From Methanomassiliicoccaceae archaeon (GTDB lineage: Archaea > Thermoplasmatota > Thermoplasmata > Methanomassiliicoccales > UBA472): a stretch of DNA of 64,000 nt. The position numbers were made by a program, and so were the translations under genes. Location of the stretch: NCBI GenBank assembly GCA_963827905.1, contig CAWHCB010000001.1:52963-116962 (forward strand), read 5' to 3'. Below the pieces are notes generated by a model. It made no database searches. It worked only from the letters and a program-made list of their open reading frames with translations, and was not told where the DNA came from. Shown one piece after another: positions 1 through 27,932 of this stretch (position 1 is the first letter of the stretch; every line of letters starts with the position of its first letter).

Positions 1-174
1 ATGGAGATAATCGACCGCTTGCGCCAGGTGGGGTTGGGCAAGGTCATCGTCTACGACCTCACGCGGAAAGAGCTAGGCGTGCCCGTGGTCCGGGTCATCG
101 TCCCGGGGTTGGAGGTATATGCATTGGACCAGGACCGGGTGGGACGCCGGTTCATGGAGGCGGCCCGGCAATGA
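1..174 (+). CDS. ycaO: YcaO-type protein, C-terminal 57 codons (gene continues upstream of the window)
   Basis: Frame 1 is open from base 1 to TGA at 172-174. The tail ...VIVYDLTRKELGVPVVRVIVPGLEVYALDQDRVGRRF looks like YcaO C-termini as I remember them. The stop overlaps the next ATG (ATGA at 171-174), the usual ycaO-tfuA arrangement. Confidence 0.6.
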   Translation: MEIIDRLRQVGLGKVIVYDLTRKELGVPVVRVIVPGLEVYALDQDRVGRRFMEAARQ

Positions 175-812
175 CCACGGTGGTCTATCTGGGCATGAGC
201 CTATCCCAAGAGGAGGCCAAAGGGCTGCTCAAGGCTCGATATCTACCACCGGTGCGAAGGGGCGACCTTCCCAAGCTCCCCGATTCCGTCAGGATGGTGG
301 GCATCATCGATGGGGTGTTCTTGAACGAGAGCGCCGTCGGACATAGGGAGATAATCGATCTTCTAAAACGTGGAGTGACGGTGGTCGGAGGGGGCAGCAT
401 GGGAGCGCTTCGGGCCGCTGAGCTGCAGGACCTGGGTATGATCGGGGTGGGCAGGATATTCGAGATGTATCGCGATGGGGACATCGAAGGCGACGACGAG
501 GTGGCGTTGGTCTTCGACCCCGAAACGTTCGAGCCCTTGTCCGAGCCTCTGGTCAATATCAGACATTTCCTATCCGAGGCGGTGCACCGGGGGGTCCTGG
601 AAGCGGCCATCGCCGAGTCGTACCTGGAGAGGGTGAGGGAAGTGTACTATCCCCGTCGTTCCTTCGACCTCCTGCTCAAGATGGTCCAGGAGGATGACGA
701 GGACCTTTACGACGAGCTCGATGCGATGCTGATGAGCTCTTCCTTCGACCTGAAACGAAGTGACACCTTAAAGGTATTAAATACAATGACAGAGTTAATG
801 TCCTCGCGTTAG
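171..812 (+). CDS. tfuA: TfuA-like protein (partner of YcaO in McrA thioglycine formation)
   Basis: 213-aa ORF with TfuA-like motifs: PPVRRGDL, IIDGVF, VGHREI, GGSMGALRAAEL, GVGRIFEMYRDG, DDEVAL. It is translationally coupled to the upstream ycaO fragment. Confidence 0.8.
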   Translation: MTTVVYLGMSLSQEEAKGLLKARYLPPVRRGDLPKLPDSVRMVGIIDGVFLNESAVGHREIIDLLKRGVTVVGGGSMGALRAAELQDLGMIGVGRIFEMYRDGDIEGDDEVALVFDPETFEPLSEPLVNIRHFLSEAVHRGVLEAAIAESYLERVREVYYPRRSFDLLLKMVQEDDEDLYDELDAMLMSSSFDLKRSDTLKVLNTMTELMSSR

Positions 813-949
813 GGATGCGGGAAAATTTGGTTTTAAGACCGTTAACCCTATACTCGTTTAACGCTGGTTAAGTGCATCCTATGTTATTCAAGTCGATAAA
901 AACGAATAACATGCTGGATGCATCATTGTAGTTATCTATTGTTTATGAT

Positions 950-983
950 GGATGGTTGGACCATCCAAGCACAAGTTTATATT
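950..983 (+). promoter_or_regulatory. Candidate mcr promoter: inverted repeat GGATGGT-N3-ACCATCC (950-966) followed by a TATA-like TTTATATT (976-983)
   Basis: AT-rich 268-bp spacer between tfuA and mcrB. The TATA-like box lies about 100 bp upstream of the mcrB ATG. A strong Shine-Dalgarno GGAGGT sits at 1069-1074, 5 nt before the ATG. No transcript data are available. Confidence 0.35.
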
Positions 984-1079
984 GAAAAAAATGTAATTCC
1001 CTGTCCGCAAGGGGAGCCAATTTTCATTGAGGAGTTTTTGGTCTTCAATGGAAATTGAGTTAGAAAAAGGAGGTATAAA

Positions 1080-2410
1080 ATGGCAAAATACAAGGACAAA
1101 ATAGACTTGTACGACGACAGGGGCAAGCTCATCGATAAGGGCGTTCCTCTGGAGGCAATCAGCCCGTTGTACAACCCGGCCATTAAGCGGACCGTGTCTC
1201 TTGCCAAGAGGACCAACGCGGTCGACCTAGGAGCACTTGAGGCAGGCCTCAAGAAGGCAAAGGTCGGCGGCGGTCAGCTGAAGGGAAGAGAGATGGACCT
1301 CGCCGTTGTGGCCAACGCCGAGAAGATCGCAAAGAGAGTCAAGGAGATTCTGAAGACCACCAAGGACGACGACACCGAGGTCACTGTGATGGCCGACGGT
1401 AAGAAGATGATCGTCGTTACCCCGACCACCCGCATGGACGCTGGGGCCGAGTATACCACTGGCTTCACCGCATGCCGCCGCCGCACTTACCCAGGCCGTC
1501 CTGGACCAGTTCGACGTGAACATGTTCGAGGCAAGCATGGTCAAGGCAGCCATCTGGGGCAGGTACCCACAGACCCTTAACATGCATGGGAGCCATCGTG
1601 AAGTGCATCCTGGAGATACCGCAGTTGAACGAGGGCGCCGGTTACGCCCTAAGGAACATCATGGCCAACCACATCGTCATGTTGTCCGGCAAGAACGCCA
1701 TGAACGCCGCCGCTCTGTCCTCGATATTCGAGCAGGCCGCCGCCTTCGAGATGGGAGACGCCATCGGTCCGTTCGAGCGCCAGCAGCTGCTGGGCCTGGC
1801 CTATCAGGGCCTGAACGCGAACAACATCGTTTGCGACATAATCAAGAAGAACGGAAAGACCGGGACCGTCGGTACCGTCGTCGAGAGCATCGTCGACCGC
1901 GCCCTCGAAGACAAAGTGATCAAGAAGGGAAAGAAGTACCCGTCCGGATTCGTGGAGATGTCCACCACCGACTTCCCGTTGTGGAACGCCTACGCCGCCG
2001 CCGGTATGTTGGCCGCCATATGCGTCAACATCGGTGCTGCCCGTGCTTCCCAGGGTATCCCCTCCACCATCCTGTACTACAACGACCTGCTGGAGCACGA
2101 GACCTCCCTGCCAGGCTGTGACTACGGCCGGTGCATGGGTACGTCCGTCGGTATGTCCTTCTTCAGCCACTCCATCTATGGTGGCGGTGGCCCAGGACTG
2201 TTCCACGGAAACCACGTCGTTACCAAGCACGCCAAGGGATTCGTCATCCCGGTCATCGCCGCTGGATGCGCTCTGGATGCTGGTACCCAGTACTTCTCTC
2301 CGGAGAACACCTCGAGCCTGATGAAGGAAGTATTCGGTGACATCCCCGAGTTCAAGACCCCGATAAAGGTCGTTGGCAAGGAGGCCAAGAAGATAAAGGA
2401 TGACTTCTGA
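1080..2410 (+). CDS. mcrB: Methyl-coenzyme M reductase beta subunit; reading frame broken twice (about 1470 and about 1585)
   Basis: McrB-like sequence runs through three frames. Frame 0: [17 protein letters not shown]...EYTTGFTA. Frame 1: [36 protein letters not shown]. Frame 2: [28 protein letters not shown]...[14 protein letters not shown]...KKIKDDF. Removing one base at each junction restores one ORF of about 443 aa. Confidence 0.9.
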
Positions 2411-2418
2411 GGTGTAGA

Positions 2419-2841
2419 ATGGCGAAGAAACCCCCCCAAGAACAAGTCCCATTGCCTGAGGTCCTCATATTCCCCGCCCGATTGTTGAAGGCGGAGACCA
2501 CTGAGAAGCTGCTGAACCAGATCTACGACGACGTTCCCCATGTTCGTCACATCACGGTCAGCGGCGAATCGCTCCCCGCAACGCTCAACGCGGGTCCCGG
2601 TAAGGGCATGCCCGCGGAGCACCCAGAGAGGAGGACCATCAAGGTTAAGGGACAGGAAGTCGAGCTGAGACTGTTGGTCGGCAGAGTGTTCGTTGAGATC
2701 GATGACATCGATAACGTCGACGATGCGTTGGCGAGGATCGAGTCAATATGCAATGAGCTACTCCCCTTCGGTTTCAGCCTAGAGGTGGGGCGGTATTCGA
2801 AATTCAAGCCGACAGTCACCGATTACAAGAAATGCAGGTGA
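2419..2841 (+). CDS. mcrD: Methyl-coenzyme M reductase operon protein D
   Basis: 140-aa ORF between mcrB and mcrG with McrD-like sequence ([16 protein letters not shown]..., [22 protein letters not shown]). Confidence 0.9.
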
Positions 2842-2846
2842 ATCAC

Positions 2847-3617
2847 ATGGCATACAAGAGACAGTTCTACCCCGGAACTTCGCTACCTGCGAAGAACAGG
2901 CGCAAGTTCTACGACCCGAACTACAAGCTGGAAAAGCTCCGTGACGTCGCGATGGATGACGTCGTCCGCATCATGGGCCACAGAAAGCCCGGTGAGGACT
3001 ACAAGTCCATCCACCCGCCACTGGACGAGGGCAATGAGCCCGACTGCCCGGTAAGGCAGATGGTTGTCCCAATCGAGGGTGCCAAGAAAGGAGACAGGAT
3101 CAGGTACGTACAGTTCACTGACTCCGTCTACTGGGCCCCCGCGATCCCCTACATCCGCGCTAACATGTACATGTCGCGCATCAGGGGTATCGACACCGGT
3201 ACCTTGTCCGGCAGGCAGATCATCGAGATGAGAGAGAGGGACCTCGAAAAGGTCGCCAAGGAGTACATCGACAATGAGACCTTCGACCCGGCCAGGACCG
3301 GAATCAGGGGCGCCACCGTGCACGGGCACGCTTGCCGCCTCGACGAGAACGGCCTGATGTTCGACGCCTGGCAGAGATACAGGTGGAACGCCAAGAAGGG
3401 AGAGGTCGAGTATGTGAAGGACCAGGTCGCCATTCCCTTGGACAAGCCGATCTCCGTCGGCAAGCCAATGGACGACAAGTGGCTGAAGGCCCACACCACC
3501 ATGTTCCGCGCCGATGGCGTTGACATGAGGGATGACGCCGAGGTCATGGCCCAGAACCTGAGGATCCACAGGCTGAGGACGCTGTGCGGATACCAGTCCT
3601 TCGCCCAAAAGGAGTGA
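2847..3617 (+). CDS. mcrG: Methyl-coenzyme M reductase gamma subunit
   Basis: [12 protein letters not shown]..., [46 protein letters not shown] and [11 protein letters not shown] are classic McrG. I chose the ATG at 2847 rather than the ORF-track start at 2832. Confidence 0.95.
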
Positions 3618-3622
3618 TCAAG

Positions 3623-5290
3623 ATGGCAGGAAAAGAGAAGGACAAGCTGTTCCTCGCAGCGATGAAGAAGAAGTTCAAGGAGGCCCCTACCGAGGTCAAC
3701 ACCAACTACTACACCTTCGGTGGATGGAAGCAGTCCAAGAGGAAGCGCGAGTGGGTCGAGCAGGCCAACAAGATCGCAAAGCAGCGCGGCATCCCCATGA
3801 TGAACCAGGACATTGGTGTCCCGCTCGGACAGCGTGTGCTCATGCCCTACCAGCTGAGCCACACCGACATATATGTCGAGGCGGACGACCTCCACTTCGT
3901 CAACAACGCCGCTATGCAGCAGGCTTGGGACGACATCAGGAGGACCGTAGTCAGCGGTCTGGACACTGCCCACGCAGTCATTGAGAAGAGGCTCGGCAAG
4001 GAAGTCACGCCTGAGACCATCAACCACTATCTGGAGACCGTCAACCACGCTATGCCTGGTGGCGCCGTCGTGCAGGAGCACATGGCTGAGTGCAGCCCCG
4101 CCCTGACCGCCGACTGCTACGTCAAGGTGTTCTCCGGTGACGACGAGCTCATCGACGAGATCGACAAGCCCTACGTCATCAACATCAACAAGGAGTTCCC
4201 CGCGGACCAGGCCAAGCAGCTGAAGGAGGCCATCGGTAAGAGCCTCTGGCAGGCCATTCGCTGCCCGACCATCGTCGGACGCGTTTGCGACGGTGGTACG
4301 ATGTCCAGGTGGTCTGCGATGCAGATCTCGATGTCCTTCATCAGCAGCTACAAGTTGGCTGCCGGTGAGGCCGCCATCGCCGACTTCGCCTTCGCCGCCA
4401 AGCACGCCTCGGTGCTAGAGATGGGTACCATGATGCCCGCTCGCCGCGCCCGTGGCCCCAACGAGCCCGGTGGAATTCCATTCGGGTTCCTGGCTGACAT
4501 GGTGCAGTCCCAGCGCAAGTACCCCGACGACCCAGTCCGCGCCTCCCTTGAGACCGTGGCCTTGGGCGCCGTGATCTTCGACCAGATCTACCTCGGCAGC
4601 TACATGTCCGGCGGTGTCGGCTTCACGCAGTACGCCACTGCGGCCTACACCGACAACATCCTCGAGGACTACTGCTACTGGGCCGCTGACCTGGTGAAGA
4701 CCAAGTACGGTGGCTTCTGCAAGACCAAGCCGACCATGGAGCTCGTCGAGAAGCTGGGCACGGAGATCAACTCCTATGCCCTGGAGATGTACGAGAAGTA
4801 CCCGGCCGCGATGGAGGCCCACTTCGGTGGTTCCCAGCGTGCGACCGTGGCCGCAGCCGCCACCGGTATCGGTGTCGCCATGGCCACCGCCAACGCCAAC
4901 GCCGGTGTCAACGCCTGGTACCTTTCCATGCTGCAGCACCGTGAGCGCATGGGCCGCCTAGGCTTCTACGGCTATGACCTGCAGGACATGTGCGGAGCGT
5001 CCAACTCGCTCTCGTACAGGTCCGACGAGGGTCTGCCGCACGAGCTCCGTGGACCCAACTACCCGAACTACGCGATGAACGTGGGTCACCTATCTGGATA
5101 CGCTGGTATCGCCTGCGCCCCGCACGCCGCTCGCGGCGATGCGTTCGCATGCAACCCGCTGATCAAGGTGGCCTTCGCGGACAAGAACCTACCGTTCGAC
5201 TTCGCGAACATCACCAAGGAGTTCGGTCGTGGCGGTCTGCGCGAGTTCATGCCAGCCGGTGAGAGGACAGTTATCATCCCCGCGAAGTGA
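3623..5290 (+). CDS. mcrA: Methyl-coenzyme M reductase alpha subunit
   Basis: 555-aa intact ORF with GGAG 8 nt upstream. McrA hallmarks present: [74 protein letters not shown]. Confidence 0.97.
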
Positions 5291-5296
5291 TCCTGA

Positions 5297-5569
5297 ATGC
5301 AAAACGGAGAATACGCCAGATACAAGAACACCGGGACCGTCGGAAAGGTGGTCAGCTCTCATATCGAGGGCGAGGTGGAGTGGGTCGAGCTTGACAACAA
5401 GCTCGTCTACGACGCCAGCTACCTGGAGCCGGCCTCGGCGGACGAGTATCGCGTGTCCTCCGTCAAGGATCGCGTGGAAGGGCTCGACCTGGAGCAGATC
5501 GAGAAGCTCAAGGAGGAGCTCTTCAAGGCGGAGCGGCATCAATACGTCACCGGTGGCGGTGGCGGCTGA
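5297..5569 (+). CDS. Small conserved archaeal protein, last gene of the mcr transcription unit (possibly DUF2098-like; family assignment is from memory only)
   Basis: 90-aa ORF starting 7 nt after the mcrA stop. It has an N-terminal YKNTGTVGKVV...WVELDN beta-rich motif and a C-terminal TGGGGG tail, and is followed by T-runs. Confidence 0.6.
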   Translation: MQNGEYARYKNTGTVGKVVSSHIEGEVEWVELDNKLVYDASYLEPASADEYRVSSVKDRVEGLDLEQIEKLKEELFKAERHQYVTGGGGG

Positions 5570-5595
5570 CCTCTAACAAACCCTTTCCATTTATC

Positions 5596-5612
5596 CCATT
5601 TTTTCTTTTGTA
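5596..5612 (+). terminator. Oligo-T tract downstream of the mcr operon
   Basis: CATTTTTTCTTTTG lies about 30 nt after the stop of the last operon gene. Archaeal terminators are typically T-runs. Confidence 0.3.
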
Positions 5613-5712
5613 CTGTTATTTTGCATCGACCTTCCTTATGCGATCCCGCCATCGATCGGCAGAGCATGGCTTTCGCTAGGTCGAAAATAAATGAAAAAAG
5701 ATGGCCGAACCT

Positions 5713-6306
5713 TCAGTCCGAGGCGTTGAAGCCCACCAGGATGGTGGCGTTCTGCGGGTCGTCATCGAGGCCATAGCGGTTCTTGATGATGATGTCGCCA
5801 AGAGGCGAGGGGGAGCATGACACGATCGCGTCCACACCATGGATGGCCTTCAGCTCAGGGAAGCTCACCGGGGGCATGAGGAAGAACTCCTTGTGCTTGG
5901 GTTGCCGGTCCATGAAGACGACGAAATCCTCGCAGAGCCAGAGCACATCGTCCCGTCCTTTGTACTTCTCGTGTTGGCCAGGCAGGACCTCGGTCCCTAT
6001 CACGATGCCCTCGTCGGCTATGAGCTGCACGGTCGGTTCCGGTGGTGGGCGGAACGACTTGTTCTTGAGGATGCATAGAACATACCGACGGGCCAGACAT
6101 TGCTCCAACCCCTCGTTCTTGACCTCCATCCCCATCTGGGATTTGATGTTCTTCTCCACGTTCAGGATGCCTTCCCGGGTCTCCTCGTCCAATGGGAAGA
6201 CCTGCAGTGTGCCGCGCATTCCTTCGATTATCCCTATGGCCTGATCAAGGGAGGTCATGCCCCCTAAATCCCGAGAACCGATATAATGGATTCCCTCGCT
6301 CTCCAT
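5713..6306 (-). CDS. Uncharacterised protein, paralog A (paralog B at 20469..21050)
   Basis: 197-aa ORF convergent with the mcr operon. Its C-terminal half aligns by eye with 20469..21050: DDV..L.EDF, F(L/V).PP(V/I).F, I.GV, (L/H)VGFN. I do not recognise the family. Confidence 0.7.
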   Translation of the reverse strand: MESEGIHYIGSRDLGGMTSLDQAIGIIEGMRGTLQVFPLDEETREGILNVEKNIKSQMGMEVKNEGLEQCLARRYVLCILKNKSFRPPPEPTVQLIADEGIVIGTEVLPGQHEKYKGRDDVLWLCEDFVVFMDRQPKHKEFFLMPPVSFPELKAIHGVDAIVSCSPSPLGDIIIKNRYGLDDDPQNATILVGFNASD

Positions 6307-6328
6307 GAATGGAAAGTGGTCCGACCCG

Positions 6329-6913
6329 TCAGACCCGGGCCACTGGTTTGTTCTGCAGATAGTCCTTGACGCTATCGAGGTCTATCTTCAGCATGATCAT
6401 GTCCCCCACGTTCATGATGTCAGCGGTGCGCATACGTATCACCGATTTGGACACCATCATGCTCTTCTTCAGGTCCAGGTCCTTGCGGGTGGCCTTGTCG
6501 AGCTTCACGTCGAAGCTAGGCACGGACCATTCGGTCTGGGCGTCGACCTTGAAGTCGGTGAGCACCCCGATCTCCCTGCCCTTCCGGCATATGACCCTCT
6601 TCCCGATCACATCGCCCACGCTGACCGGGACCTCTGACTCATCCAGGACTGCCTGAGATATCTGGTCCATGGTAAGGTTCAGGGTCACCAGATCGGAGAT
6701 GTGGTGGACGGCCTCTATCCTGATGTGGGCATGGGAGGCGCCCAAGACCCTCTTCTTCTTGTTAAGCTGGGCCTCCAGGCCCTTGTTGATGGTGATCCGC
6801 AGGGATGGCACCTTCCACTTATCGCGGTCCAGGTCCACACCCTCCACATATCCGACCACCTTGGCGTCCGAGCTGACCATTTCCTTGCCTAAAATATCCT
6901 CAATGTCTAGCAT
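6329..6913 (-). CDS. PRC-barrel domain protein (two PRC barrels)
   Basis: 194 aa with two copies of the G(K)xVxxxxxxxxGxVxxxxxDxxxWxVxS pattern: ILGKEMVSSDAKVVGYVEGVDLDRDKWKVPSL and VIGKRVICRKGREIGVLTDFKVDAQTEWSVPSF. Confidence 0.75.
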   Translation of the reverse strand: MLDIEDILGKEMVSSDAKVVGYVEGVDLDRDKWKVPSLRITINKGLEAQLNKKKRVLGASHAHIRIEAVHHISDLVTLNLTMDQISQAVLDESEVPVSVGDVIGKRVICRKGREIGVLTDFKVDAQTEWSVPSFDVKLDKATRKDLDLKKSMMVSKSVIRMRTADIMNVGDMIMLKIDLDSVKDYLQNKPVARV

Positions 6914-7023
6914 ATCCCGATCCCTGCCCGGTATAAGCGATTCTCATTATTTCATGATTGCCGAAAGCCCGCCAATTCCAAACGGGCGAATCATTATATC
7001 GCTCCGAGACCGCTCCCTTCGCC

Positions 7024-7342
7024 ATGGTCCTGGACACTATCATGAAGGAGCAGCCAGAGGTCATCAACGCCCTGTACCGTTACAAGAACACGGTCTTCAA
7101 GGAGGGGCATCATCTCCTTCAAGGAAAAGGAGCTGATCGCCATCGGCATCATCTGCGTGCTCAAATGCGAGGAATGCTTGGACACCCACGTTCAGAAGGC
7201 CATGGAGCTGGGGGCGACCAGGGACGAGATCCGGGAGGCGGTGCTGGTCGCGATGTACCTGGCCGGACCTCATGCCGTGGTCTGGTCCAAAAAGGTGGAC
7301 AGCTACATTTCGGACGATTTCAACGCTGGAACTCCGCCTTGA
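7024..7342 (+). CDS. Carboxymuconolactone decarboxylase / AhpD-like family protein; one frame break near 7110
   Basis: MVLDTIMKEQPEVINALYRYKNTVFKEG is in frame 1. It continues in frame 2 as ISFKEKELIAIGIICVLKCEECLDTHVQKAMELGATRDEIREAVLVAMYLAG, which carries the CxxC AhpD-like motif. Confidence 0.7.
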
Positions 7343-7655
7343 TGTCCCGTTTGATGCCTAGGCCGGACACCACCTCGCCGCACTTCAGGATGGCCATCGG
7401 GACCGGGCACACGGAATGCTTCAGCACTTTGCCGGAGATGATGTACACCTTGTTCTCGCAGAATGGCATGGTCATGATGTCCATCATAGGGATGGGACCT
7501 AGCTCCTTCTCCAATCTCTTGACGTAGGGGCAATTGCTCTCCAGATGGAAGCTCAAAACTCCGTCGACCATCACGCCCCGCACCTTGGTGGGGAAACGGC
7601 AAGCACCAGGGTCGAGGTTCACGACGACCTCCTCTTCGGCCATGAGCCCTATCAT
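7320..7655 (-). CDS. Hypothetical cysteine-containing protein
   Basis: 111-aa ORF with sensible codon usage and conserved-looking Cys (ACRF, NCPYV, FCENK, SVCPVP, LKCGE). Its 3' end overlaps the convergent CMD gene by 23 bp. No family recognised. Confidence 0.5.
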   Translation of the reverse strand: MIGLMAEEEVVVNLDPGACRFPTKVRGVMVDGVLSFHLESNCPYVKRLEKELGPIPMMDIMTMPFCENKVYIISGKVLKHSVCPVPMAILKCGEVVSGLGIKRDIKAEFQR

Positions 7656-7709
7656 TCAAGCTTCGCCTAAATTATCTTTGCGCCGGACCGACCAGGTCAA
7701 CGCCTGACC

Positions 7710-8711: not shown

Positions 8712-8750
8712 TGTGAAGGCGCATTTAACAATACTTGACCATCTGGAATA

Positions 8751-8784: not shown

Positions 8785-8804
8785 GTCTGCGTTCAACCCC
8801 TCAT

Positions 8805-18505: not shown

Positions 18506-18526
18506 AGGGACTAAACACTAACAAAC

Positions 18527-18573: not shown

Positions 18574-18801
18574 AAAGACAGACCGGGTCATCTCGACACT
18601 ATCCTTTTCATAATTTATCCGAGCGATCAAGACAGAAGGCCACATCTTCCTAGGATACTCGATGGGGAGCAGATTCCCTGGGTCTCAAGATCAAAGGCGT
18701 TACCTCAAGGGTTTGCGATAGGGATGACCATTCAAGGAGGTTTATGGAATAATGTTCCAATTGCGAAAATAGAAAGGAGGGCTATGACTGGAAGTTTGGA
18801 G

Positions 18802-20080
18802 TCAATCATGATCGAACAATCTATCGATGTCCTTCTTATCGGTCCCATAGGAGCAGAATCCGATGCTCAGCGTGAACCGCCCTTGGTAACTGCTCAATCC
18901 GATGATGAGCATAGGTGGGAAAGCGAGAGGCACGGTCAAGTAGCAATCGCTAGGGACGATCTCACCGAAGTGCAATCTCCCAGCCTCAAGAACGCCCACA
19001 TTAGAGAACAATGGGGGCAAAGACCTTCTCTTGACCATTTCCTCATAGCTTTCCTCGACCTTCGTCTTCGTCAGTCCGAATGGTAAAAGGCCATAGGTCA
19101 TTTCGATGTAAGGGACGCTCACCAAGGCCGAATCGTTCTGCTTCTGTGTGTCCATGAATTGGTGGACCTTCAATAGGAACCTCTCATGGTCCGATGCATC
19201 ATCCACTGAAAAGCGAGGGAAAACGCCCCACCGAGGTTGGCCACTTTCTGTCCTGCCTCAGGAGCGAAACGCCTCAGGTCGACCGCCACTTGGATAGGAA
19301 CCGGAACCCCCTGTTTCGGTCTTATGATCTCAAAAAGCGACTCGAAAAGCACGGCCAAGAAAAGGTCGTTGACCGTCACCTTATTGGAATGGCAATGGTC
19401 GAATATGGACTTAGAACGGTCGGAATCGAACCTCTTAAGCAACATCCGTCTGTTTTTCGTCTCTCTGCTGGTGAAGGGAAGGCACCATTGACTGGTTGGC
19501 CTCTACCGGCTTTCTTATCGCTTTCAGGGCTGTGCGGCGCATTCTCCATCGTTTGCTCAGGTTCAATCTTTCTCCAGATAGGCCTCATGGATCGATCCTG
19601 GGGTCGCTTCGAAGGTCCGGACGGCGTCTCATTCCGCAGCAACCGGTCGTACGCCTCGGACAGATGGTAAGCGATCTCCTTGGCCCCGATCCCGTCACAG
19701 ACGACATGATTGACCTTCAGAGCGAGGATGTCGTCCTTTCCACGGAACAGTCTGACCTGAATCAACGGGTCGGCCCCAGGGTCAGATGGCGTGGTGAGGA
19801 AAACGCCCAGCTCCTCCTGAGGGTCCGTTGATTCGACCAACATGAACAACGGCAATGAATCCAAGTTCTGTCTGGTCCTCCAACCCGGTCTAGGCATCTC
19901 GACCCATCTCCAACCCAGTTCCGGTTCGGAGAGCAAGATGTGCCTCACCGCCCTTTCCAGGACCTTCTCGTCCAACCTAGCCTGGAATTCCATGACGACA
20001 TGTAGCTGCTGGTCGCAAACATGTCGCAATATGGCGTTCATCCGGTCCTGAGGCGTGGCAGGGAAACGGGCTGCTCTCAT
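18802..20080 (-). CDS. Condensation-domain / WS-DGAT-like acyltransferase (HxxxDG motif); frame broken near 19445 and near 19205
   Basis: LKVNHVVCDGIGAKE carries the HxxxDG catalytic motif. Three consecutive fragments (19376..20080, 19170..19445, 18802..19206) read through as one protein of about 425 aa. GC is visibly lower than in the flanks. Confidence 0.6.
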
Positions 20081-20148
20081 CCACTGGCCCGATAAGCCCT
20101 GGACGATAAAATACTATCAAGGGAAAATTCACCGCTCTGAGGAAGGTC

Positions 20149-20334
20149 TCACTCGGACAGCAACGTCCTTACCTTGATCGAGCCGGTCTGATACCAGACC
20201 TGGAAGGAGTTCATATCCCAGGCCGGGGATATGCCAAGGACCTCGGAGTGATAGATGAGGATGTAGCTGGTTATCAGCAAGGCCACAGCTGCAGATGAGC
20301 CAAGACCTACCTTGATCAACAGTTTGCTTGCCAC
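20149..20334 (-). CDS. Small single-pass membrane protein (hypothetical)
   Basis: 61-codon ORF with a GTG start preceded by GGGGGAGGAT 4 nt upstream and a hydrophobic stretch GLGSSAAVALLITSYILIY. The call rests on the Shine-Dalgarno and the hydrophobicity only. Confidence 0.4.
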   Translation of the reverse strand: MASKLLIKVGLGSSAAVALLITSYILIYHSEVLGISPAWDMNSFQVWYQTGSIKVRTLLSE

Positions 20335-20468
20335 GACATCCTCCCCCTAGCGCATGACCGATGTCAATTGCGTTAAATTAATAATAATTGGTCCTAACAT
20401 AAAAGGCTTTGCAACAACTACGGCTTGCGATCACGACCAAATCATCATTCATTTTGGTAAAGCCCCCG

Positions 20469-21050
20469 TCAGTCCTCGCCCTCGATGTTGAACCCTACCA
20501 GGTGCGTCCAATGCTTGGTCTTGGAATATCCAAGCCGTTCCCTGACCATATCGTCCGCCAGGGTGGAGATGGAACCAGAGGTCACTTCCTTGACACCCGG
20601 GATGTCATCGAGGAATTGGAATGGGATGGGAGGGAGCACGAAGTATGGCTCCCCTTTCGGGACCACGTTCAGGTAGAAGATGAAGTCCTCGCTCAGGAAA
20701 CATACATCGTCCCGGTCCTGCATCTCCCCACGGCGCGACGGGGTTAGGTACTCACCGACTATCTGCCCCTCCTGGTCCGCGATGTAGACCACATCCCTGG
20801 TCGGCGATAGGATCATCATCGATGAGTCGACCACCAGCACGAAACCGTGCCTCCGGTCCAATGCCTTCCAGACTCCCGTGTTGACGAAAGGCATGAGCCC
20901 TCCGCAGGCACCGTTGTCCTCGGCCGATCGCTCCAGGGCGATGAGGTCGTCCTTGAACCCCTTATCAAGGTAACGGAAATCGATCACGCCTGGAAGCTCC
21001 CGAGACCTTTGTTCCACTGCCCTGAGCACCTTGTCACGGTCCAAGGTCAT
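20469..21050 (-). CDS. Uncharacterised protein, paralog B (paralog A at 5713..6306)
   Basis: 193-aa ORF. Its C-terminal half (DDVCFLSEDFIFYLN...YFVLPPIPFQFLDDIPGV...HLVGFNIEGED) aligns with paralog A. Confidence 0.7.
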   Translation of the reverse strand: MTLDRDKVLRAVEQRSRELPGVIDFRYLDKGFKDDLIALERSAEDNGACGGLMPFVNTGVWKALDRRHGFVLVVDSSMMILSPTRDVVYIADQEGQIVGEYLTPSRRGEMQDRDDVCFLSEDFIFYLNVVPKGEPYFVLPPIPFQFLDDIPGVKEVTSGSISTLADDMVRERLGYSKTKHWTHLVGFNIEGED

Positions 21051-21100
21051 CCTCCCTTACTGTCCATCGAGCCGAAGGTCGCCGGGTCACCACGGACCTT

Positions 21101-21877
21101 TCAGCAGGTCACGTGGATCAAGGCCACGAACTTTTCCTTCGTCGCCAACATCTCCTCGATCACATCGGGGGTGGGCTTGACCACAGCATTCATTTCCTCG
21201 AGCATCTTGCTCGCCTTGGGCGTTATGGGCATGCCTCCGCTCTGACCTGTTCCGATGAACACCAGTTTGACATTGTCGTCCAAAAGCGTCTTGAGCTCCT
21301 TCCTGGTCAGGGGTACGTGGCCGTACTTGTCCTTCTTGTCCTTTGACAACGACTTGTCGCGGCGTTCCACGGTACCATCTGCTTTCACGATGAGGTCATG
21401 TTCATGCCTTATCCCGTTTATCTCGCACCAGCCGAAACGGGAACGGGCCTGGGTCACAACGCTCTTGACCGCCTTCTTGCGACCTCCCCGTCTCTTGACC
21501 GTCGGCTCCACCGCGACAGGCTCCTCTAGCTCGGGCTCCTCGCGCGGGGATGGGATGACCTCGACCGGGATGGACAGTTCGACCTCTTGGGTGATCGGTT
21601 CCTTCTTCTTCCGCGGGGCGCGCTTGCGGGTCTTGGGCTTTTCGACCTCTGGCTCCGCCACGACCTCTTCCGCGACAGGTTCAGGTTCTACCGCAGTCTC
21701 AACCACAGACGCCTGATCTGGCGAAGCCTCCTCGACGCTATCCGTCTCCATGGGGGCGCTCTCCACGATCTCGACCATCGCCTCCTGTTCGTTCACCACA
21801 TCGGCCATTCCCTCGGTTGGGGAGGGTTCCTTCTTGGCCTTTCTAGAAGTCCTTGCACCCGTTGTCTTTCTCGGCAT
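21101..21877 (-). CDS. Mth938-like (DUF498) domain protein with a long acidic/basic disordered N-terminal extension
   Basis: The C-terminal 115 aa (GWCEINGIRHEHDLIV..., LVFIGTGQSGGMPITP, ALIHVTC) match the Mth938 fold family from memory. The N-terminal 140 aa are low-complexity E/P/V/K. Confidence 0.6.
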   Translation of the reverse strand: MPRKTTGARTSRKAKKEPSPTEGMADVVNEQEAMVEIVESAPMETDSVEEASPDQASVVETAVEPEPVAEEVVAEPEVEKPKTRKRAPRKKKEPITQEVELSIPVEVIPSPREEPELEEPVAVEPTVKRRGGRKKAVKSVVTQARSRFGWCEINGIRHEHDLIVKADGTVERRDKSLSKDKKDKYGHVPLTRKELKTLLDDNVKLVFIGTGQSGGMPITPKASKMLEEMNAVVKPTPDVIEEMLATKEKFVALIHVTC

Positions 21878-22053
21878 AGAAATGTCACCAGACGAACCTG
21901 ATATGGAAACGGCCTTTTATTAATGGTTTGCCAGCCACTCATATCTTTTTTAAGGTGGAGGTCAACCAAAAACCGTGGCCATGATACAAGAATTCGCCCT
22001 TCCAGATGATGCAAAACCTTTTTTATCACCCCCTGCCATCCCACCCCGACCAG

Positions 22054-24120
22054 ATGAGGATCAACGTAAATGGCAAACCCATCGAGGTGGGGGACGGGGC
22101 CAAGCTGGCCGATGTCTTAGAAGGACAACCTTATGTTCCTGGCACCTATTTGGCGATCATCCGTTCCCTGGAACAGGTGGTGAAGGAGACCAGCGAGTTC
22201 GAGGTCGTCACCGAGAAGGGTTCCTTCATAGTTCAAGTGCAAGAGGGGGCTTGGAAGCAGATATGGCTCGACCTCTACAAAGGATTGGAGGGGCGCAGTG
22301 TGCGCTGGCGCACCAGCAAGATCGATGCCATCGGTTCGTTCCCTTCATCCATACCTTCCTCAAGGGACCCTGCCAAGCTCGTTCGCTACGATTGCTTCTT
22401 CGCCTTGGGCGGTTATGATAGCCAGACCACATACATCATGATCGCCCGCCAGGACCATGAGGCCGCGTACGGTGTGGCCGCCCCGGTCTTCGGAAGGGTG
22501 ACGAGCGGCAGGCATGTGGTAGATGCCCTTGACGAGGCGGACAAGGTCCTGGAAGTGAGACCGGTCATCATCGAGCTGCGGTCCAAGGATGCATTGGCCA
22601 CCAACGATCTGGAGACCAGATTGGAACCGGGCATGTCGGTGGAGACCTTCGTGCAGGTCGACCTCGACCCCCGTTCTCCCGTGTCGGTGGAGCATTTCCT
22701 GGTGGCCGTCGATGGAGGGACCATCAAGGTCACCGAGAAGACCGAGTCGTTCACTGCCAACTCCTCCAGGATGGATGTCAATCTGATCGAGGAGTCCCAC
22801 TCCATCCGCGAGCCGGACCTGGTAACGGTCCGACACCAAGGGGACGGCATGGGTCGGATATACTTCTACAAGACCAGGAGACAGGTCTCCAACAGCCACA
22901 ACATCGTCGGCAAGGTGTCGATCGGCCACCAATTGATACATCTAGTTCCGGAGGGAGGGGCCGTGACCATCGTCCCCAAACCGGGGAGGGTCATGGTCAT
23001 TGGCATGACCCAGGCCGAAGGGCAGAGATTCCTGGAATCACATGGACTGAAGCAGGTGCGGACCGGGATCACCGACGATTCTGCCATCATCGTAGAGCAG
23101 GAACCGGAGCTCACCATGCATGTCATGGAGGAGGGTTCGGTCGACACCTTCGGCACGACCTCCGATCGGATCCATGATTGGTACCTGTTCCGGTCCGAGG
23201 CACCAACCTCGGTCCGCTACATCGAGAAGCTCACCGGTCTGGACCACAAGCCCATTGGCACGGTCAAGGTGCACTTCACCTTCGAGGGCATGTCCATGGT
23301 CACCTTCGATGGGGACGACCAATTGGGTGCGAGCCTCTATCCTGAGCCGTCCTGGAAGGACATGAGCCGTCGCGGTGACATCGGTGTCACCAACATGTCC
23401 CGGCCGAATCGGGGACTGATCGGCATCAGGCTGCAGGAGAGCCCCGAGTTCGGTCCCACCGGGGAGGAACAGCACGGAACCAACCTCATCGGTCGCTTCG
23501 CAGGCGACCTGGCGAGCATGATGGTCGGCCTGAAGGACGGGGACATCGTGTACCTTCGCGAGACGGATGTCAGCCCTGACAAGGTTTCCAAACCCCGGCG
23601 CAAACCAGCAAGCGATGATGCTGAGGTCCAAGCCCAAGAAGGCGGCGGCGAAGAAGAAGACCTCGTCGTCCAAGCCCAAGAAGGCGGTAAAGAAATGACG
23701 CTCGACCATGAGACAAGATACATTGTTCTGGCCCCGGACTGCACCATGACACCGGACCAGCTAGTGCGCACCATACACACCATCGATGCTGACGTCATCG
23801 TCAAGGAGACATGTTTCGGGGCGGTCATCTCCGGCAAGACCGAGGCGGTGAGGAAGGTCCTCACCGAGGTGCGGAAGATGGACCCCACCCGTGTCTATTC
23901 CAAGGTGCGGGGCTTCCCCGTGGGCGACCAGAGGAGGTGCCGGGCCCATCATGGCTCGAGACCTGGGTTCGCCCAGCTGGAGAAGGAATGGAAGGACCTG
24001 ACCATGGTGGAGAAGGGCCTGCAATGCCTGGAGCGAGGGGAGAAGGTCCCTCCCATCAAGAAGAAGGGCAAGATGCCCGTCAAGGATCTGAAGACCGTAT
24101 GCGAGGAGGCCTGTCCATGA
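22054..24120 (+). CDS. mmp3: Methanogenesis marker protein 3 (22054 to about 23620) read through in frame into methanogenesis marker protein 6 (23695-24120)
   Basis: MRINVNGKPIEVGDGAKLADVL... and about 520 aa are Mmp3-like. After an E/Q/G linker, MTLDHETRYIVLAPDCTMTPDQL...RCRAHHGSRPGFAQLE is Mmp6-like. See the finding on a hidden alternative-frame stop at 23696-23698. Confidence 0.85.
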   Translation: MRINVNGKPIEVGDGAKLADVLEGQPYVPGTYLAIIRSLEQVVKETSEFEVVTEKGSFIVQVQEGAWKQIWLDLYKGLEGRSVRWRTSKIDAIGSFPSSIPSSRDPAKLVRYDCFFALGGYDSQTTYIMIARQDHEAAYGVAAPVFGRVTSGRHVVDALDEADKVLEVRPVIIELRSKDALATNDLETRLEPGMSVETFVQVDLDPRSPVSVEHFLVAVDGGTIKVTEKTESFTANSSRMDVNLIEESHSIREPDLVTVRHQGDGMGRIYFYKTRRQVSNSHNIVGKVSIGHQLIHLVPEGGAVTIVPKPGRVMVIGMTQAEGQRFLESHGLKQVRTGITDDSAIIVEQEPELTMHVMEEGSVDTFGTTSDRIHDWYLFRSEAPTSVRYIEKLTGLDHKPIGTVKVHFTFEGMSMVTFDGDDQLGASLYPEPSWKDMSRRGDIGVTNMSRPNRGLIGIRLQESPEFGPTGEEQHGTNLIGRFAGDLASMMVGLKDGDIVYLRETDVSPDKVSKPRRKPASDDAEVQAQEGGGEEEDLVVQAQEGGKEMTLDHETRYIVLAPDCTMTPDQLVRTIHTIDADVIVKETCFGAVISGKTEAVRKVLTEVRKMDPTRVYSKVRGFPVGDQRRCRAHHGSRPGFAQLEKEWKDLTMVEKGLQCLERGEKVPPIKKKGKMPVKDLKTVCEEACP
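23626..23687 (+). repeat. 20-bp direct repeat GTCCAAGCCCAAGAAGGCGG x2 (period 42 bp) in the Mmp3/Mmp6 junction
   Basis: Identical copies at 23626-23645 and 23668-23687. Confidence 0.9.
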
Positions 24121-24554
24121 AGGTGCTCATCGTCCCGCCCAACAGCCTGATACTTTTCGACCTGGTAGAGCGATTCGGCCATGAGCCATTGAGCGTCATG
24201 GCCGTGCTCCAGGAGAAGATCGAGTCCAAGGAGATCGAGTCGCCGCCCATCAACGTCACGGTGGACGATGTGAAGAAGGGCCTGAAGTACGCGGCCATCG
24301 AGGTGCCCTCGGGAATAAGGGGCCGTCTGGCCATATACGGACCCTTGGTCGACATAGCCGAGGCGGCGATCATCATGGAGGACGCCCCGTTCATGTTCGG
24401 TTGCGTGGGCTGCGCCCGGACCAACGAGATGATGAAGCTCCTCATCCGCAAGCGGAAGATACCCTTGCTGGAACTGGACTACCCGGCGAACGAGGACGAG
24501 GCCAAGGCCATGGTGGCCCAGATAAAGACCTTCCTGGAGGGATTGGTAAGATGA
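24117..24554 (+). CDS. mmp5: Methanogenesis marker protein 5
   Basis: 145-aa ORF ([24 protein letters not shown]...[13 protein letters not shown]...LELDYP). ATGA overlaps at both ends. Confidence 0.85.
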
Positions 24555-25780
24555 TCAAGATCGCACAGTTGTCCTGCGGCACCGAGTACTCTGCCGTGCA
24601 ATCGGAGATCGAGGCCGCCGCCACCGCAGTCGGCGCGAAGATGGTGTACCCGGACGTGGACATGGAGAAGATCAATTCGGCCGTGGACCGGTTCGGCTTC
24701 AACCCGGTGAGCCCGCAACTGAAGCTCATGATCGCCCGCGCCATGTCCCTGGCCGACAAGAGCTATGAGGCCGACGCCGTGTTCATCTCCTCTTGCTTCC
24801 GTTGCGCCGAGGCGGCGCTGGTGCGCACCGAGCTGAGGAAGTTCATCCAGAACAACACCCGCATGCCAGTGGTCACATATTCCTTCACGGAGAGGACCAA
24901 GTCCGGACAGCTTCTGACCAGGATGGAGGCATTGGTCACCATCGTGGAGAGGAAGGAGCTGCTCGCCCGGGAGAGGCAGGTCGGGCTGACCGCAGGCCTG
25001 GACTCCGGTTCCAGCACGACGAAGGCGGTCATCATGCGGGACAATGTGATCATCGGCAAGAGCTGGACCCCCACCGCGGACATATTCTCGTCGGCGGAGA
25101 CGGCCCTCCAGGAGGCCCTGGCCCAGGCCGGAGTCACCATCGGCCAACTGGAGGCCATCGGCACCACTGGCTACGGACGTTTCACCTTGGGCAAGAAGTT
25201 CAAGGCCAAGCTGGTCCAGGAGGAGCTCACCACCAATTCCAAGGGGGCGGTATGGCTGGCCGACCGGCAGAAGGGGGAGGCCACCATCATCGACATCGGG
25301 GGCATGGACAACAAGGCCATCACCGTTCGCGACGGCATCCCGGACAACTTCACCATGGGCGGCATATGCGCTGGCGCCTCCGGACGTTTCCTGGAGCTGA
25401 CGGCAAAGAGGCTCAGGGTGGAGATAACCGACCTGGGGGCGATGGCGGACCGGGGCGACCACACCAAGGTGCCCATGAACTCCTATTGCTCCATATTCGG
25501 CATCCAGGACCTGGTCACATCGCTGGCCGCAGGCCACACCGTCGAGGACGTGGCCGCCGCCGCCTGCCATTCCGTGGCCGAACAGATCTACGAACAGCAG
25601 CTCCAGGAGATCGAGGTCAGAAAACCCATCATCCAGGTGGGCGGGACCTCATTGATATCTGGCCTGGTCACGGCCATGGAGCACACCCTGGGCGAGAGGC
25701 CGATAGTGCCTCCCCACTCCCAATACATCGGGGCGGTGGGCGGGGCATTGCTCTCCTCGGGATTCCTTGAGGGGCATTGA
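24551..25780 (+). CDS. mmp15: Methanogenesis marker protein 15 (BadF/BcrA/HgdC-type ATPase fold)
   Basis: 409 aa. The N-terminal [14 protein letters not shown] segment is followed by an acetate/sugar-kinase-like ATPase ([42 protein letters not shown]). Confidence 0.85.
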
Positions 25781-25781
25781 G

Positions 25782-26339
25782 ATGGAGATCGAGGTGCAGG
25801 GCACGGACCAGAAGGGCGCGGAGGACTATGCCCTGCTGTTCGAGCACATCCTGCTGGAGATGGGCCTGACCAACGTGCTTGACAAGGTCCTGCTCCTGGT
25901 CCAGCCTGCCGACCCGTTGTTCGTGGTCTCGGTGCGCATGCGGCCCACCGCCGGTGCCCGTCCCATCTACGACGTGGTGCAGCTCGATGATAAGGAGGGC
26001 GGGGTGATGCTCTCCATAACCGACGAGACGTTCGCCCCCCGCGTGCTCGCCCTGCTCTGGAAGACCTTCGGCCGGGACCGGGTGGAGCAGCTGACCCGTT
26101 ATGAGATCTTCGTGGCGGGTAAGAACCGTTCCGACCTATGGGACCTGAAGATAGACCCGGAGGAGGAGCTGCGGGCCCAAGTGCTTGACGCCATCTGGAA
26201 GCTCGTCCCCGAGGGTCTGAAGATCCGCCATTCCTTCAATTCCGAAAACGTTATGACCATAGCCAACACCGAGCACGGATTCCAGCCGGACTGGTTGGAT
26301 GCGGCGGAGAAAGTGCATCATTCCATGGAGGCGTCCTGA
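25782..26339 (+). CDS. mmp17: Methanogenesis marker protein 17
   Basis: 185-aa ORF immediately after mmp15. Its length and position in the mmp operon fit Mmp17. The family call is from memory of operon order and size. Confidence 0.75.
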   Translation: MEIEVQGTDQKGAEDYALLFEHILLEMGLTNVLDKVLLLVQPADPLFVVSVRMRPTAGARPIYDVVQLDDKEGGVMLSITDETFAPRVLALLWKTFGRDRVEQLTRYEIFVAGKNRSDLWDLKIDPEEELRAQVLDAIWKLVPEGLKIRHSFNSENVMTIANTEHGFQPDWLDAAEKVHHSMEAS

Positions 26340-27289
26340 TGTACCAGGTGCTGATGTACGACGGAGGGGTGTACCGGGTCAAGGAGCTTTACGAGCTCAT
26401 CGAGGACATCGGGGGCTTCGTGATCCAGAAGACCCAGATCCAGGTCCAGATAATCATCACCTTTGCCATCCCGGAGGAGGACCGGCCCATCATCGAACGC
26501 AAGACCCGGGAGCTGGGCGGCAAGTTGTCCGAGGTCCCCTTGGCCGGCACGGAGATAGTGGTGGTCGGACCCACCCTGGGCAGGCACCACATGCCCCACC
26601 CCATCTGCGACATCGCGGAGAACCTGCGTCGTTACGGCGCCATCACCGTGGTCATGGGCTTGGCGAGGGGAAGGGGCAAGCATACCGCGCAGATCAGCGC
26701 CGATGAGAAGGCCATCATCGAGGAGTATGACGCGGCGGTCTTCGTGGTCGGCAACTTCCGGGAGTGCGTGGAGAAGCACAAATTCAAGCTCTGGCAGGAC
26801 ATCCAGATACCGGTGGTCGCCACCTGTGGACCGGAGTTCGACTCGCTGCCCGCCTGCGACGCGCTGGTGTGCGGCATCGGGCGAAAGGTGGAGCGCATGC
26901 GCCGGGCCGAGGAGATCCAGAAGCTGGACGAGGTGGCGGAAAAGGTGCAAGGCCTCATCGAGCTGAAGCGCAAGGACACGGACGACGACCCGCTCTTCGT
27001 GCACCCGGCCGAGATCAAGGACCGCCTGGATTCGATGCAGGCCATCCAGGACAACCTGCGCCCGGCGCCTGTGGTCCTGCACGTCAACGGTGTGAGGGCC
27101 AAGCTGCCATTCGAGCAATATGCCGCTGCCATCGCCGACCTTGAGGTCTACGGACGAAAGTTGGGCGAGGTGACGACGATATCGCCGAGCCGCATGCCAG
27201 GCAGCATCCTCATCCGCATCAAGACCCGCAGCCAGGTGGAATCAGAGGACCGGACCAGGCAATCACAGTCCGCTACCGCCAAGACCTGA
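26339..27289 (+). CDS. mmp7: Methanogenesis marker protein 7
   Basis: 316 aa, with a TGATG stop/start overlap with mmp17. MYQVLMYDGGVYRVKEL..., VVVGPTLGRHHMPHPICDI, VVATCGP resemble Mmp7. Confidence 0.8.
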   Translation: MYQVLMYDGGVYRVKELYELIEDIGGFVIQKTQIQVQIIITFAIPEEDRPIIERKTRELGGKLSEVPLAGTEIVVVGPTLGRHHMPHPICDIAENLRRYGAITVVMGLARGRGKHTAQISADEKAIIEEYDAAVFVVGNFRECVEKHKFKLWQDIQIPVVATCGPEFDSLPACDALVCGIGRKVERMRRAEEIQKLDEVAEKVQGLIELKRKDTDDDPLFVHPAEIKDRLDSMQAIQDNLRPAPVVLHVNGVRAKLPFEQYAAAIADLEVYGRKLGEVTTISPSRMPGSILIRIKTRSQVESEDRTRQSQSATAKT

Positions 27290-27920: not shown

Positions 27921-27932
27921 GGCGATTCGACG

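Follow-up and report, generated by a model that had tools for sequence, protein, structure and literature searches.

An order-wide methyl-coenzyme M reductase supercluster in the Methanomassiliicoccales and its predicted control by a DUF2111 regulator

Methyl-coenzyme M reductase (MCR) makes nearly all biogenic methane, and the way in which it is assembled, modified, activated and regulated is only now being resolved. Here we analyze the MCR genes on a 64,000-nucleotide stretch of DNA (the window; contig CAWHCB010000001.1, positions 52,963 to 116,962) from a Methanomassiliicoccaceae archaeon, together with a divergently transcribed gene for a DUF2111-containing regulator. A compact MCR cluster has been described in this order by Borrel et al. 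(2014; BMC Genomics, PMC4153887), who found 13 of 15 methanogenesis markers, including mcr, within ~16 kb in M. luminyensis and Ca. M. alvus, and who singled out an SH3-fold protein adjoining mcrA (arCOG04846, which is DUF2098) as possibly MCR-associated. The same DUF2098 was later co-purified with McrC, Mmp7, Mmp17, Mmp3 and component A2 from Methanococcus maripaludis and was resolved bound to a loop of McrC (Ramirez-Amador et al. 2025; Nature, PMC12176620). In M. acetivorans, atwA and mmp3/5/6/7/15/17 form a validated “MCR activation operon” that is constitutively expressed (Adler and Nayak 2026, preprint), a grouping that was also noted in PMC3226654 and that recurs as a known cluster in Methanohalophilus. 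Adam et al. (2022, Table S1), who tabulate the Borrel 2019 set of markers, list DUF2098 as m22 and DUF2111 as m24. In that table the M. maripaludis DUF2111 protein is MMP0311 and the DUF2112 protein (arCOG04903, Mmp5 family) is MMP0312, and the adjacency of these tags hints that the linkage of DUF2111 to mmp genes extends beyond the Methanomassiliicoccales.

Our analysis shows that the window very probably holds an order-wide Methanomassiliicoccales MCR supercluster, as judged from gene identities and conserved gene order, for which we infer control by the DUF2111 regulator. The clustering itself is a new instance of the published arrangement and is not new, while the conserved pair of GGATGG/CCATCC palindromes at the mcr and regulator promoters is a new finding here. 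Genes were called by combining a listing of open reading frames (ORFs) with NCBIfam equivalog and Pfam profile scans. A first, sequence-only reading of this DNA had placed the modification, structural and activation genes of MCR within 27 kb, and this was borne out, as ycaO-tfuA, mcrBDGA, atwA-mcrC and mmp3-6-5-15-17-7 all lie inside 27.3 kb. NCBIfam equivalog models recovered each of the identities that it had assigned to these genes. The genes of the cluster and those interleaved with it or directly following it are as follows.

1 to 174, plus strand: 3' end of ycaO (TIGR03266, E=1.7e-17), with only the last 56 amino acids inside the window
171 to 812, plus strand: tfuA (NF033432, 249 bits, above cutoff)
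1080 to 2410, plus strand: mcrB (TIGR03257 on both halves), with two +1 frame breaks at ~1473 and ~1587
2419 to 2841, plus strand: mcrD (TIGR03260)
2832 to 3617, plus strand: mcrG (TIGR03259)
3623 to 5290, plus strand: mcrA (TIGR03256, 977 bits)
5297 to 5569, plus strand: DUF2098 gene, marker m22 (PF09871, E=4.5e-14)
5713 to 6258, minus strand: unkP1, 181 amino acids, true start at 6258, no match in any library searched
6329 to 6913, minus strand: PRC-barrel protein (PF05239, E=2e-6)
7024 to 7342, plus strand: small carboxymuconolactone decarboxylase (CMD)/AhpD-like protein (PF02627, E=1.5e-17), with one extra base at ~7110
7320 to 7655, minus strand: DUF6951 protein (PF22263, E=2e-24)
7710 to 8669, minus strand: predicted regulator with winged helix-turn-helix (wHTH), DUF4443 and DUF2111 domains, marker m24 (Pfam), true start at 8669, divergent from atwA
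8805 to 10451, plus strand: atwA, component A2 (TIGR03269 on both halves), with frame breaks at ~8911 and ~9650
10448 to 11053, plus strand: mcrC (TIGR03264, 292 bits)
20469 to 21050, minus strand: unkP2, a paralog of unkP1 (BLASTP against unkP1)
21101 to 21877, minus strand: DUF498-like protein with a charged N-terminal extension (PF04430, below cutoff)
22006 to 23698, plus strand: mmp3 (TIGR03268, 445 bits), with a frame break in its Lys-rich tail at ~23.6 kb
23695 to 24120, plus strand: mmp6 (TIGR03272)
24117 to 24554, plus strand: mmp5 (TIGR03271)
24551 to 25780, plus strand: mmp15, a BcrAD/HgdC-type ATPase (TIGR03286, 680 bits)
25782 to 26339, plus strand: mmp17 (TIGR03291), with an alternative TTG start at 25767
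26339 to 27289, plus strand: mmp7 (TIGR03274, 344 bits against a cutoff of 349; PF04609 MCR_C in orthologs)
27359 to 27920, plus strand: NADPH-dependent FMN-reductase-type flavoprotein (PF03358, E=6.5e-35), with a frame break at ~27840
27933 to 28352, plus strand: DUF123 protein (PF01986, E=8.5e-21)
28404 to 28652, plus strand: coiled-coil ORF of 82 amino acids

The overlapping and abutting junctions proposed for atwA/mcrC and along the mmp operon are also present. The ycaO/tfuA, mmp6/mmp5 and mmp5/mmp15 pairs overlap by ATGA and atwA/mcrC by GTGA, while mmp17 and mmp7 meet in TGATG. The translationally coupled ycaO and tfuA match the curated NCBIfam equivalog models for McrA-glycine thioamidation. 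The mcr operon consists of mcrBDGA, with mcrC relocated beside atwA, and DUF2098 starts 6 nucleotides (nt) past the end of mcrA, a gap so small that the gene is presumably co-transcribed with mcrBDGA. Some distances and boundaries needed revision. The position of tfuA upstream of mcrB stood, with a spacer of 267 nt in place of 268, while the atwA ATG begins 3.5 kb past the end of mcrA, and not 3.2 kb. Seven intervals had been set aside as uncharacterized genes, and four of them are indeed single genes, but the other three comprise several genes each: two convergent genes at 7024-7655 (CMD/AhpD-like on the plus strand and DUF6951 on the minus strand), unkP2 plus the DUF498-like gene at 20149-21877 (no ORF covers 20081-20468), and the FMN reductase, DUF123 and coiled-coil genes at 27359-28652. 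One of the seven, DUF2098, had been put forward as a candidate for MCR maturation, and its place as a subunit in the MCR activation complex has since been established (PMC12176620), in the way which that reading had suggested; the protein from the window matches chain L of PDB 8S7V/8S7X/9H1L (E=1e-4). The accompanying statement that MCR genes are dispersed in other methanogens fits the locus tags of M. maripaludis but not the Methanosarcinales, where atwA and the six mmp genes are a known operon.

To compare the locus with its relatives, we scanned for McrA with one genome per species, which gave 80 loci, all from Methanomassiliicoccales and each with 10 kb of flank on either side. Linkage was counted by tblastn with all window proteins against the 79 other loci, and denominators are the loci with enough flanking sequence. 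The Mmp7 sequence of the window had no exact counterpart on record, and a search of a plasmid collection with the mcr operon returned no match. The closest public genome is contig CAWBKY010000004.1 of the metagenome-assembled genome (MAG) MFD02979.bin.2.97 (hereafter L001), which has an identical McrA (100%); because its DNA aligns at 94.9% identity over window positions 1-15250, we take it to be an independent assembly of a sister strain.

The core set stays linked across these loci, while several interleaved genes do not. DUF2098 lies beside mcrA in 70 of 75 evaluable loci, at a median of 15 nt, and atwA and mcrC are mcrA-linked in 50 of 59, with mmp3 found within 10 kb in 47 of 57. The DUF2111 regulator is mcrA-linked in 52/61 loci, DUF6951 in 43/63, and unkP1 in 60 of its 66 evaluable loci with a median identity of only ~44%. 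Other elements are confined to part of the order: tfuA occurs upstream of mcrB in 20/58 loci, in Methanomassiliicoccaceae-type genomes only (L002-L025, L079), the CMD gene occupies the same slot in 24 loci from genomes of this type, and unkP2 lies between mcrC and mmp3 in 11 loci, again all Methanomassiliicoccaceae-type, and also in the compact loci L081 and L082. The PRC-barrel gene was found in 20/66 loci, at low identity and on the opposite strand in the other family. Neither the DUF498-like gene nor the FMN reductase was found in any of the 79 other loci, and the latter is also absent after mmp7 in L081 and L082. The sequence-only reading had named missing linkage in related genomes as the outcome that would refute its proposal of guilt by association. 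By this measure the proposal held for DUF2098, unkP1, the regulator and DUF6951, and in Methanomassiliicoccaceae-type genomes for the CMD gene and unkP2, and it failed for the PRC-barrel, DUF498-like and FMN-reductase genes and for the block at 11.1-20.1 kb.

The two compact loci L081 and L082 read AsnC-DUF169, ycaO-tfuA-mcrBDGA-DUF2098, unkP1, CMD, DUF6951-regulator, atwA-mcrC, unkP2 and mmp3-6-5-15-17-7. The AsnC/Lrp-type regulator and DUF169 genes lie directly before ycaO (L081 19990-20966, L082 19127-20421), and the window begins inside ycaO. The gene orders point to an ancestral layout of (ycaO-tfuA) mcrBDGA-DUF2098 forward, unkP1 reverse, CMD forward, DUF6951 and the regulator reverse, atwA-mcrC forward, unkP2 reverse and mmp3-6-5-15-17-7 forward, which spans ~16-21 kb in compact relatives.

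Alignment of upstream regions identified the following promoter elements.

950 to 966: palindrome GGATGG-N5-CCATCC in the mcr promoter, upstream of mcrB
972 to 982: conserved block CAAGTTTATAT resembling a B recognition element (BRE) and TATA box, CAAG(C/T)TTATAT across relatives, 5 nt after the end of the N5 palindrome
1006 to 1025, plus strand: conserved block CGCAAGGGGAGCCAATTTTC, CGCAAGGGGAGCC(G/A)ATTTTC across relatives, ~25-45 nt downstream of the mcr TATA box
8681 to 8701: palindrome GGATGGAT-N5-ATCCATCC (entered in our feature list as GGATGGAT-N5-ATCCAACC) in the regulator promoter, equivalent to GGATGG-N9-CCATCC with one mismatch

The regulator palindrome emerged when the intergenic regions between the regulator and atwA were aligned. 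On the sense strand of the regulator, a TATA-like TTTATAT is followed by the palindrome, then 11 nt, then the ATG, and because the nominal ORF start at 8711 lies inside this promoter element, we place the true start at 8669. In 1.35 Mb of relatives' loci, there are 37 perfect matches to GGATGG-N(0-15)-CCATCC compared to 1.4 in block shuffles; 21 of the 37 lie upstream of mcrB (18 with N5), 14 at the regulator start (12 with N9) and only 2 elsewhere. The mcrB site is perfect in 16 of 23 Methanomassiliicoccaceae-type loci, compared to ~0.3% of random 220-bp windows, and the regulator site in 12 of 14 family-A loci, against a background of about 0.2-0.3% of such windows. In the Methanomethylophilaceae (family B) the regulator site takes the form GGATG-N7-CATCC, which was found within 1 mismatch in 32/43 loci compared to a 3% background. 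The arms of the palindromes are invariant between loci while the spacers vary, and among relatives' loci no palindrome is conserved upstream of mmp3, unkP1 or other cluster genes. The block at 1006-1025, which we found by aligning 16 mcrB upstream regions from Methanomassiliicoccaceae-type genomes, is followed by a GGAGGT Shine-Dalgarno sequence and the mcrB ATG. Neither the block nor the mcr leader has an Rfam match, and the block could be a transcription start site or an element of the 5' untranslated region.

The regulator is a protein of 319 amino acids encoded divergently from atwA. Pfam recognizes its wHTH (PF22167 and PF21715) and its DUF2111 domain (PF09884, 108 bits against a cutoff of 27). 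Its structural model has a predicted local distance difference test score (pLDDT) of 83, or about 90 within domains, and matches PH0730 (2P8T; E=4.9e-11, template modeling (TM) score 0.77), with further matches to IclR regulators and to GAF/Cache sensor domains. The wHTH superposes on the operator-bound domain of CggR at 0.9 A. By these resemblances in the model, the wHTH-DUF4443-DUF2111 protein would be a transcription factor that responds to a ligand. The literature that we searched contains no functional account of DUF2111, DUF4443 or DUF6951 and no mention of arCOG04902/MMP0311. Our search for homologs of the regulator returned orthologs from Methanomassiliicoccales only, and linkage outside the order was judged from published locus tags. 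At L083 (10001-16182), genes for two URO-D (MtaA/MtbA-like) methyltransferases, a RACo-type reductive activase, a B12-binding corrinoid protein and DUF1638 adjoin that of a 51%-identical paralog of the regulator, at which the GGATGG palindrome is absent. The regulator family may serve several methanogenesis modules.

Two of the small proteins near the regulator may be relevant to its signal. The DUF6951 gene follows that of the regulator in the same orientation, with 54 nt between them, and its product carries the signature G-x-C, C, H-x-x-C-P-x-P, in which three Cys and one His are each present in at least 90% of 47 aligned sequences (that of the window and 46 orthologs); it has no sequence match in the PDB. 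The CMD protein carries the motif C-x-x-C-x-x-x-H (KCEECLDTH in the window), which is kept in all 6 orthologs inspected. It resembles the AhpD/CMD family in its PF02627 match and in the CxxC...H redox motif that AhpD-like proteins typically carry, but it differs in being a minimal single-domain form of ~100 amino acids located inside an MCR cluster. Together, these two proteins might provide redox, thiol or metal sensing, repair or service around MCR activation, and such a role would fit the strictly reductive, ATP-dependent chemistry of this process.

From these observations we predict that the DUF2111 regulator autoregulates and controls mcr. It would bind the GGATGG/CCATCC palindromes at both promoters. 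At its own gene, where the palindrome lies between the TATA box and the ATG, the position is that of a repressor site, and the regulator would repress its own promoter through the N9 site. At mcr, where the palindrome lies just upstream of the BRE/TATA block, the position is that of an activator site, and the regulator would activate or modulate the promoter through the N5 site, with mcrBDGA-DUF2098 forming a single transcription unit under its control. In its full form, the proposal is that DUF2111 (m24) is the C-terminal module of a dedicated MCR transcription factor that binds the palindromes, represses itself, and drives or tunes mcrBDGA-DUF2098 according to a redox, thiol or metal signal conveyed by the DUF6951 and AhpD-like CxxC proteins. 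We advance this tentatively and judge it possible rather than probable. If true, it would describe the first specific regulator and operator for an mcr operon and would give the first functional handle on marker m24, which adjoins mmp5 in M. maripaludis (MMP0311/MMP0312). The palindromes yield a testable hypothesis on how MCR is transcriptionally controlled in an order of methanogens relevant to gut and wetland.

The remaining interleaved genes, unkP1 and unkP2, are paralogs (BLASTP, 29% identity, E=4e-23). Their close homologs are all Methanomassiliicoccales hypothetical proteins without Pfam domains. Neither has an NCBIfam match, and a profile search against 1.84 billion representatives gave 405 matches, 274 of them with E<=1e-10. 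An AlphaFold model (AF2) of unkP1 has high confidence (pLDDT 94.3, predicted TM score 0.87), and a fold search with it found no significant neighbor in the PDB (best E=0.42). Weak matches to the nitroreductase/FbiB fold recurred (E about 0.4, TM 0.37), which we do not regard as evidence. An origin in anti-phage defense, a toxin-antitoxin system or a phage was also discarded, as seven members had no PADLOC or PHROGs match. A further member (L087, 7489-8073) lies beside fwd-like subunit genes and mch. We consider only the mcr-linked subfamily a candidate MCR accessory, and within it unkP1 and unkP2 are probably lineage-specific accessory proteins. Together with the AhpD-like CxxC protein, the Cys/His protein and the DUF2111 regulator, these two make up a shortlist of co-conserved proteins outside the 2025 complex structure.

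Several points weigh against the reading of the locus proposed here, and the weakest link of the proposal is the regulator as the binder of the palindromes. The mcrB copy is mostly missing in Methanomethylophilaceae-type loci (4/41 with the relaxed pattern GGATG-N1-11-CATCC, 1/42 with the strict pattern and up to 1 mismatch), while the regulator and its own site are kept, and the two sites have different spacers (5 and 9), a difference that a rigid dimer could not accommodate. The constitutive activation operon of M. acetivorans means that regulation of these genes is not universal (Adler and Nayak 2026, preprint). Furthermore, synteny counts across related loci are not phylogenetically independent events, and the unkP family occurs outside mcr clusters too, with full-length homologs in non-mcr neighborhoods. 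The palindromes could be real operators of a different factor, such as the AsnC/Lrp-type protein or a global regulator, with the DUF2111 protein as a mere target. In favor of this are the AsnC-family gene that directly precedes ycaO in L081 and L082 and the N5 and N9 spacers, which could reflect different binding modes or proteins. We nevertheless think this distinctly unlikely, as the site overlaps the core promoter of the DUF2111 regulator in both families, which is the classic geometry of autoregulation, and as the Methanomethylophilaceae have kept both the regulator and its site. For the interleaved genes, it is conceivable that unkP1/unkP2, CMD, DUF6951 and the PRC-barrel protein are passengers kept between essential, tightly packed operons and not partners of MCR. 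Members of the unkP family do occur in unrelated contexts. One full-length homolog, in L086 (8851-10015), matches with an hhalign probability of 99.8% and 34% identity; it bears a HepT-like remnant at its N-terminus and has an NTP_transf_2 nucleotidyltransferase as its neighbor on a bacterial-looking contig. A paralog made of tandem domains, in L085 (10001-11080) of a Methanomethylophilaceae MAG, is surrounded by AAA_14/DUF4143, helicase and KAP NTPase genes. The PRC-barrel, DUF498-like and FMN-reductase genes come and go, and the order shared by related loci is partly a matter of descent. This explanation still strikes us as rather unlikely, because the block has survived a moved ycaO, a flipped or lost PRC-barrel gene and insertions of up to several kb, and is kept across two families whose McrA proteins are only ~73-77% identical. 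In addition, unkP1 has remained in place despite its strong divergence, and DUF2098, which formerly belonged to the same category, proved to be a subunit of the complex.

A different concern is that the interruptions in mcrB, atwA, mmp3 and other genes could be real, which would make these genes pseudogenes and the cluster one in decay in this organism. There are at least seven frame breaks over 28 kb, none of them mentioned in the sequence-only reading (mcrB ~1473 and ~1587, CMD ~7110, atwA ~8911 and ~9650, the Mmp3 tail at ~23.6 kb and the FMN reductase at ~27.84 kb), each of a single base, or about one single-base indel per 2-4 kb of coding sequence in window 1-28000. The mcrB break at ~1473 (window 1465-1480, TTCACCGCATGCCGCC; GCATGCC), where relatives encode FTAAAAALTQ, is also common to the window and L001, every other indel being specific to one assembly, and it may be a systematic basecalling error at the motif or real. 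On the other hand, four of the five breaks in 1-15 kb (1587, 7110, 8911 and 9650) are absent from the sister assembly, which is itself broken where the window is intact, namely in ycaO, tfuA, the regulator and the C-terminal half of atwA. L021, another MAG of the MFD series, has the same split-match pattern. Apart from the single-base indels, the proteins show full conservation, and MCR is indispensable to a methanogen. Pseudogenes are therefore highly improbable, and since the indels specific to the window and to L001 alternate, the many frame breaks are assembly errors. A common sequence motif at the frameshift sites (a CATG idea) was dropped because the contexts differ. The single “Mmp3/6” ORF of the sequence-only reading is one such frame-break artefact: an alternative frame restores the Lys-rich tail seen in relatives, with a stop that overlaps the Mmp6 ATG as ATGA, and we rejected a true fusion, the two genes being separate and overlapping in L081 and L082 as well. 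Face-value gene calls are thus wrong here, with a split mcrB and atwA and a fused Mmp3/6, and calls from the window, L001 and L021 assemblies need frameshift-aware handling.

The cluster spans 27.3 kb here and not ~16 kb because of an insertion at 11.1-20.1 kb plus the DUF498-like gene. The insertion and its contents are as follows.

11138 to 20080: lineage-specific insertion of ~9 kb between mcrC and unkP2
11201 to 13202: response regulator and PAS/GAF histidine kinase, inside the insertion
14018 to ~18200: fragmented DUF11/DUF7507 repeat surface protein, inside the insertion
19376 to 20080, minus strand: weak condensation-like ORF, inside the insertion

The gap from mcrC to mmp3 is 10,952 nt in the window compared to about 0.6-1.3 kb in relatives. 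The insertion is seen only in the window and in L001, and is absent from the mcrC-unkP2/mmp3 interval of relatives. Since its first ~4 kb, with the same junction from mcrC to the response regulator and histidine kinase to DUF11, is also present in the independent assembly L001, the block is a genuine, recent insertion. Its borders were found to carry neither a tRNA nor an integrase or repeat, and tRNA and Rfam scans gave no border marker. The DUF498-like and FMN-reductase genes are, by their distribution, single-gene additions in this lineage. Further DUF11/DUF7507 surface-protein fragments lie on the minus strand at 43600-52214 of the window, and look like the pieces of at least one large adhesin-like gene split by indels. 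On the other side of the cluster, DUF123 and a small ORF (96 amino acids in L082) follow mmp7 both in the window and in L082, and a GlcD-like FAD oxidase, located at 29225-30817 in the window, directly follows mmp7 in L031. These three genes may form a conserved flank that shows no evident connection with MCR. The region 33920-37194 holds an ordinary metal-homeostasis pair, namely an AsnC-TRASH metal-responsive regulator beside a P1B ATPase of the copper type with two HMA domains.

The predicted regulator shares several features with IclR-type and PH0730-like wHTH regulators: a winged helix at the N-terminus, a GAF/PAS-like effector domain after it, a gene divergent from a target operon and a palindromic site over its own promoter. 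It differs from both in its extra C-terminal DUF2111, a methanogen marker, and its ligand and DNA binding are predictions here. As in the cluster of Borrel et al. (2014), we find mcrBDGA without mcrC, DUF2098 by mcrA, atwA-mcrC and six mmp genes in the same order, with YcaO nearby, but the window extends over 27 kb with ~9 kb of unrelated genes between mcrC and unkP2. Moreover, unkP1, CMD, DUF6951, the DUF2111 regulator and unkP2 are absent from the marker list of that study, which describes no cis-element. Judged by genes alone, homologs of every reported non-MCR subunit of the M. maripaludis activation complex (McrC, Mmp7, Mmp17, Mmp3, A2 and DUF2098) are encoded here; the genes are contiguous, while in M. 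maripaludis they are scattered (MMP0001, 0154, 0421, 0620, 0656 and 1557). The M. acetivorans operon groups the same seven genes, and the tight, overlapping junctions here likewise imply co-transcription. Whereas that operon is reported to be constitutive, atwA is paired here with mcrC as a separate upstream unit, by the mcr operon and the divergent regulator.

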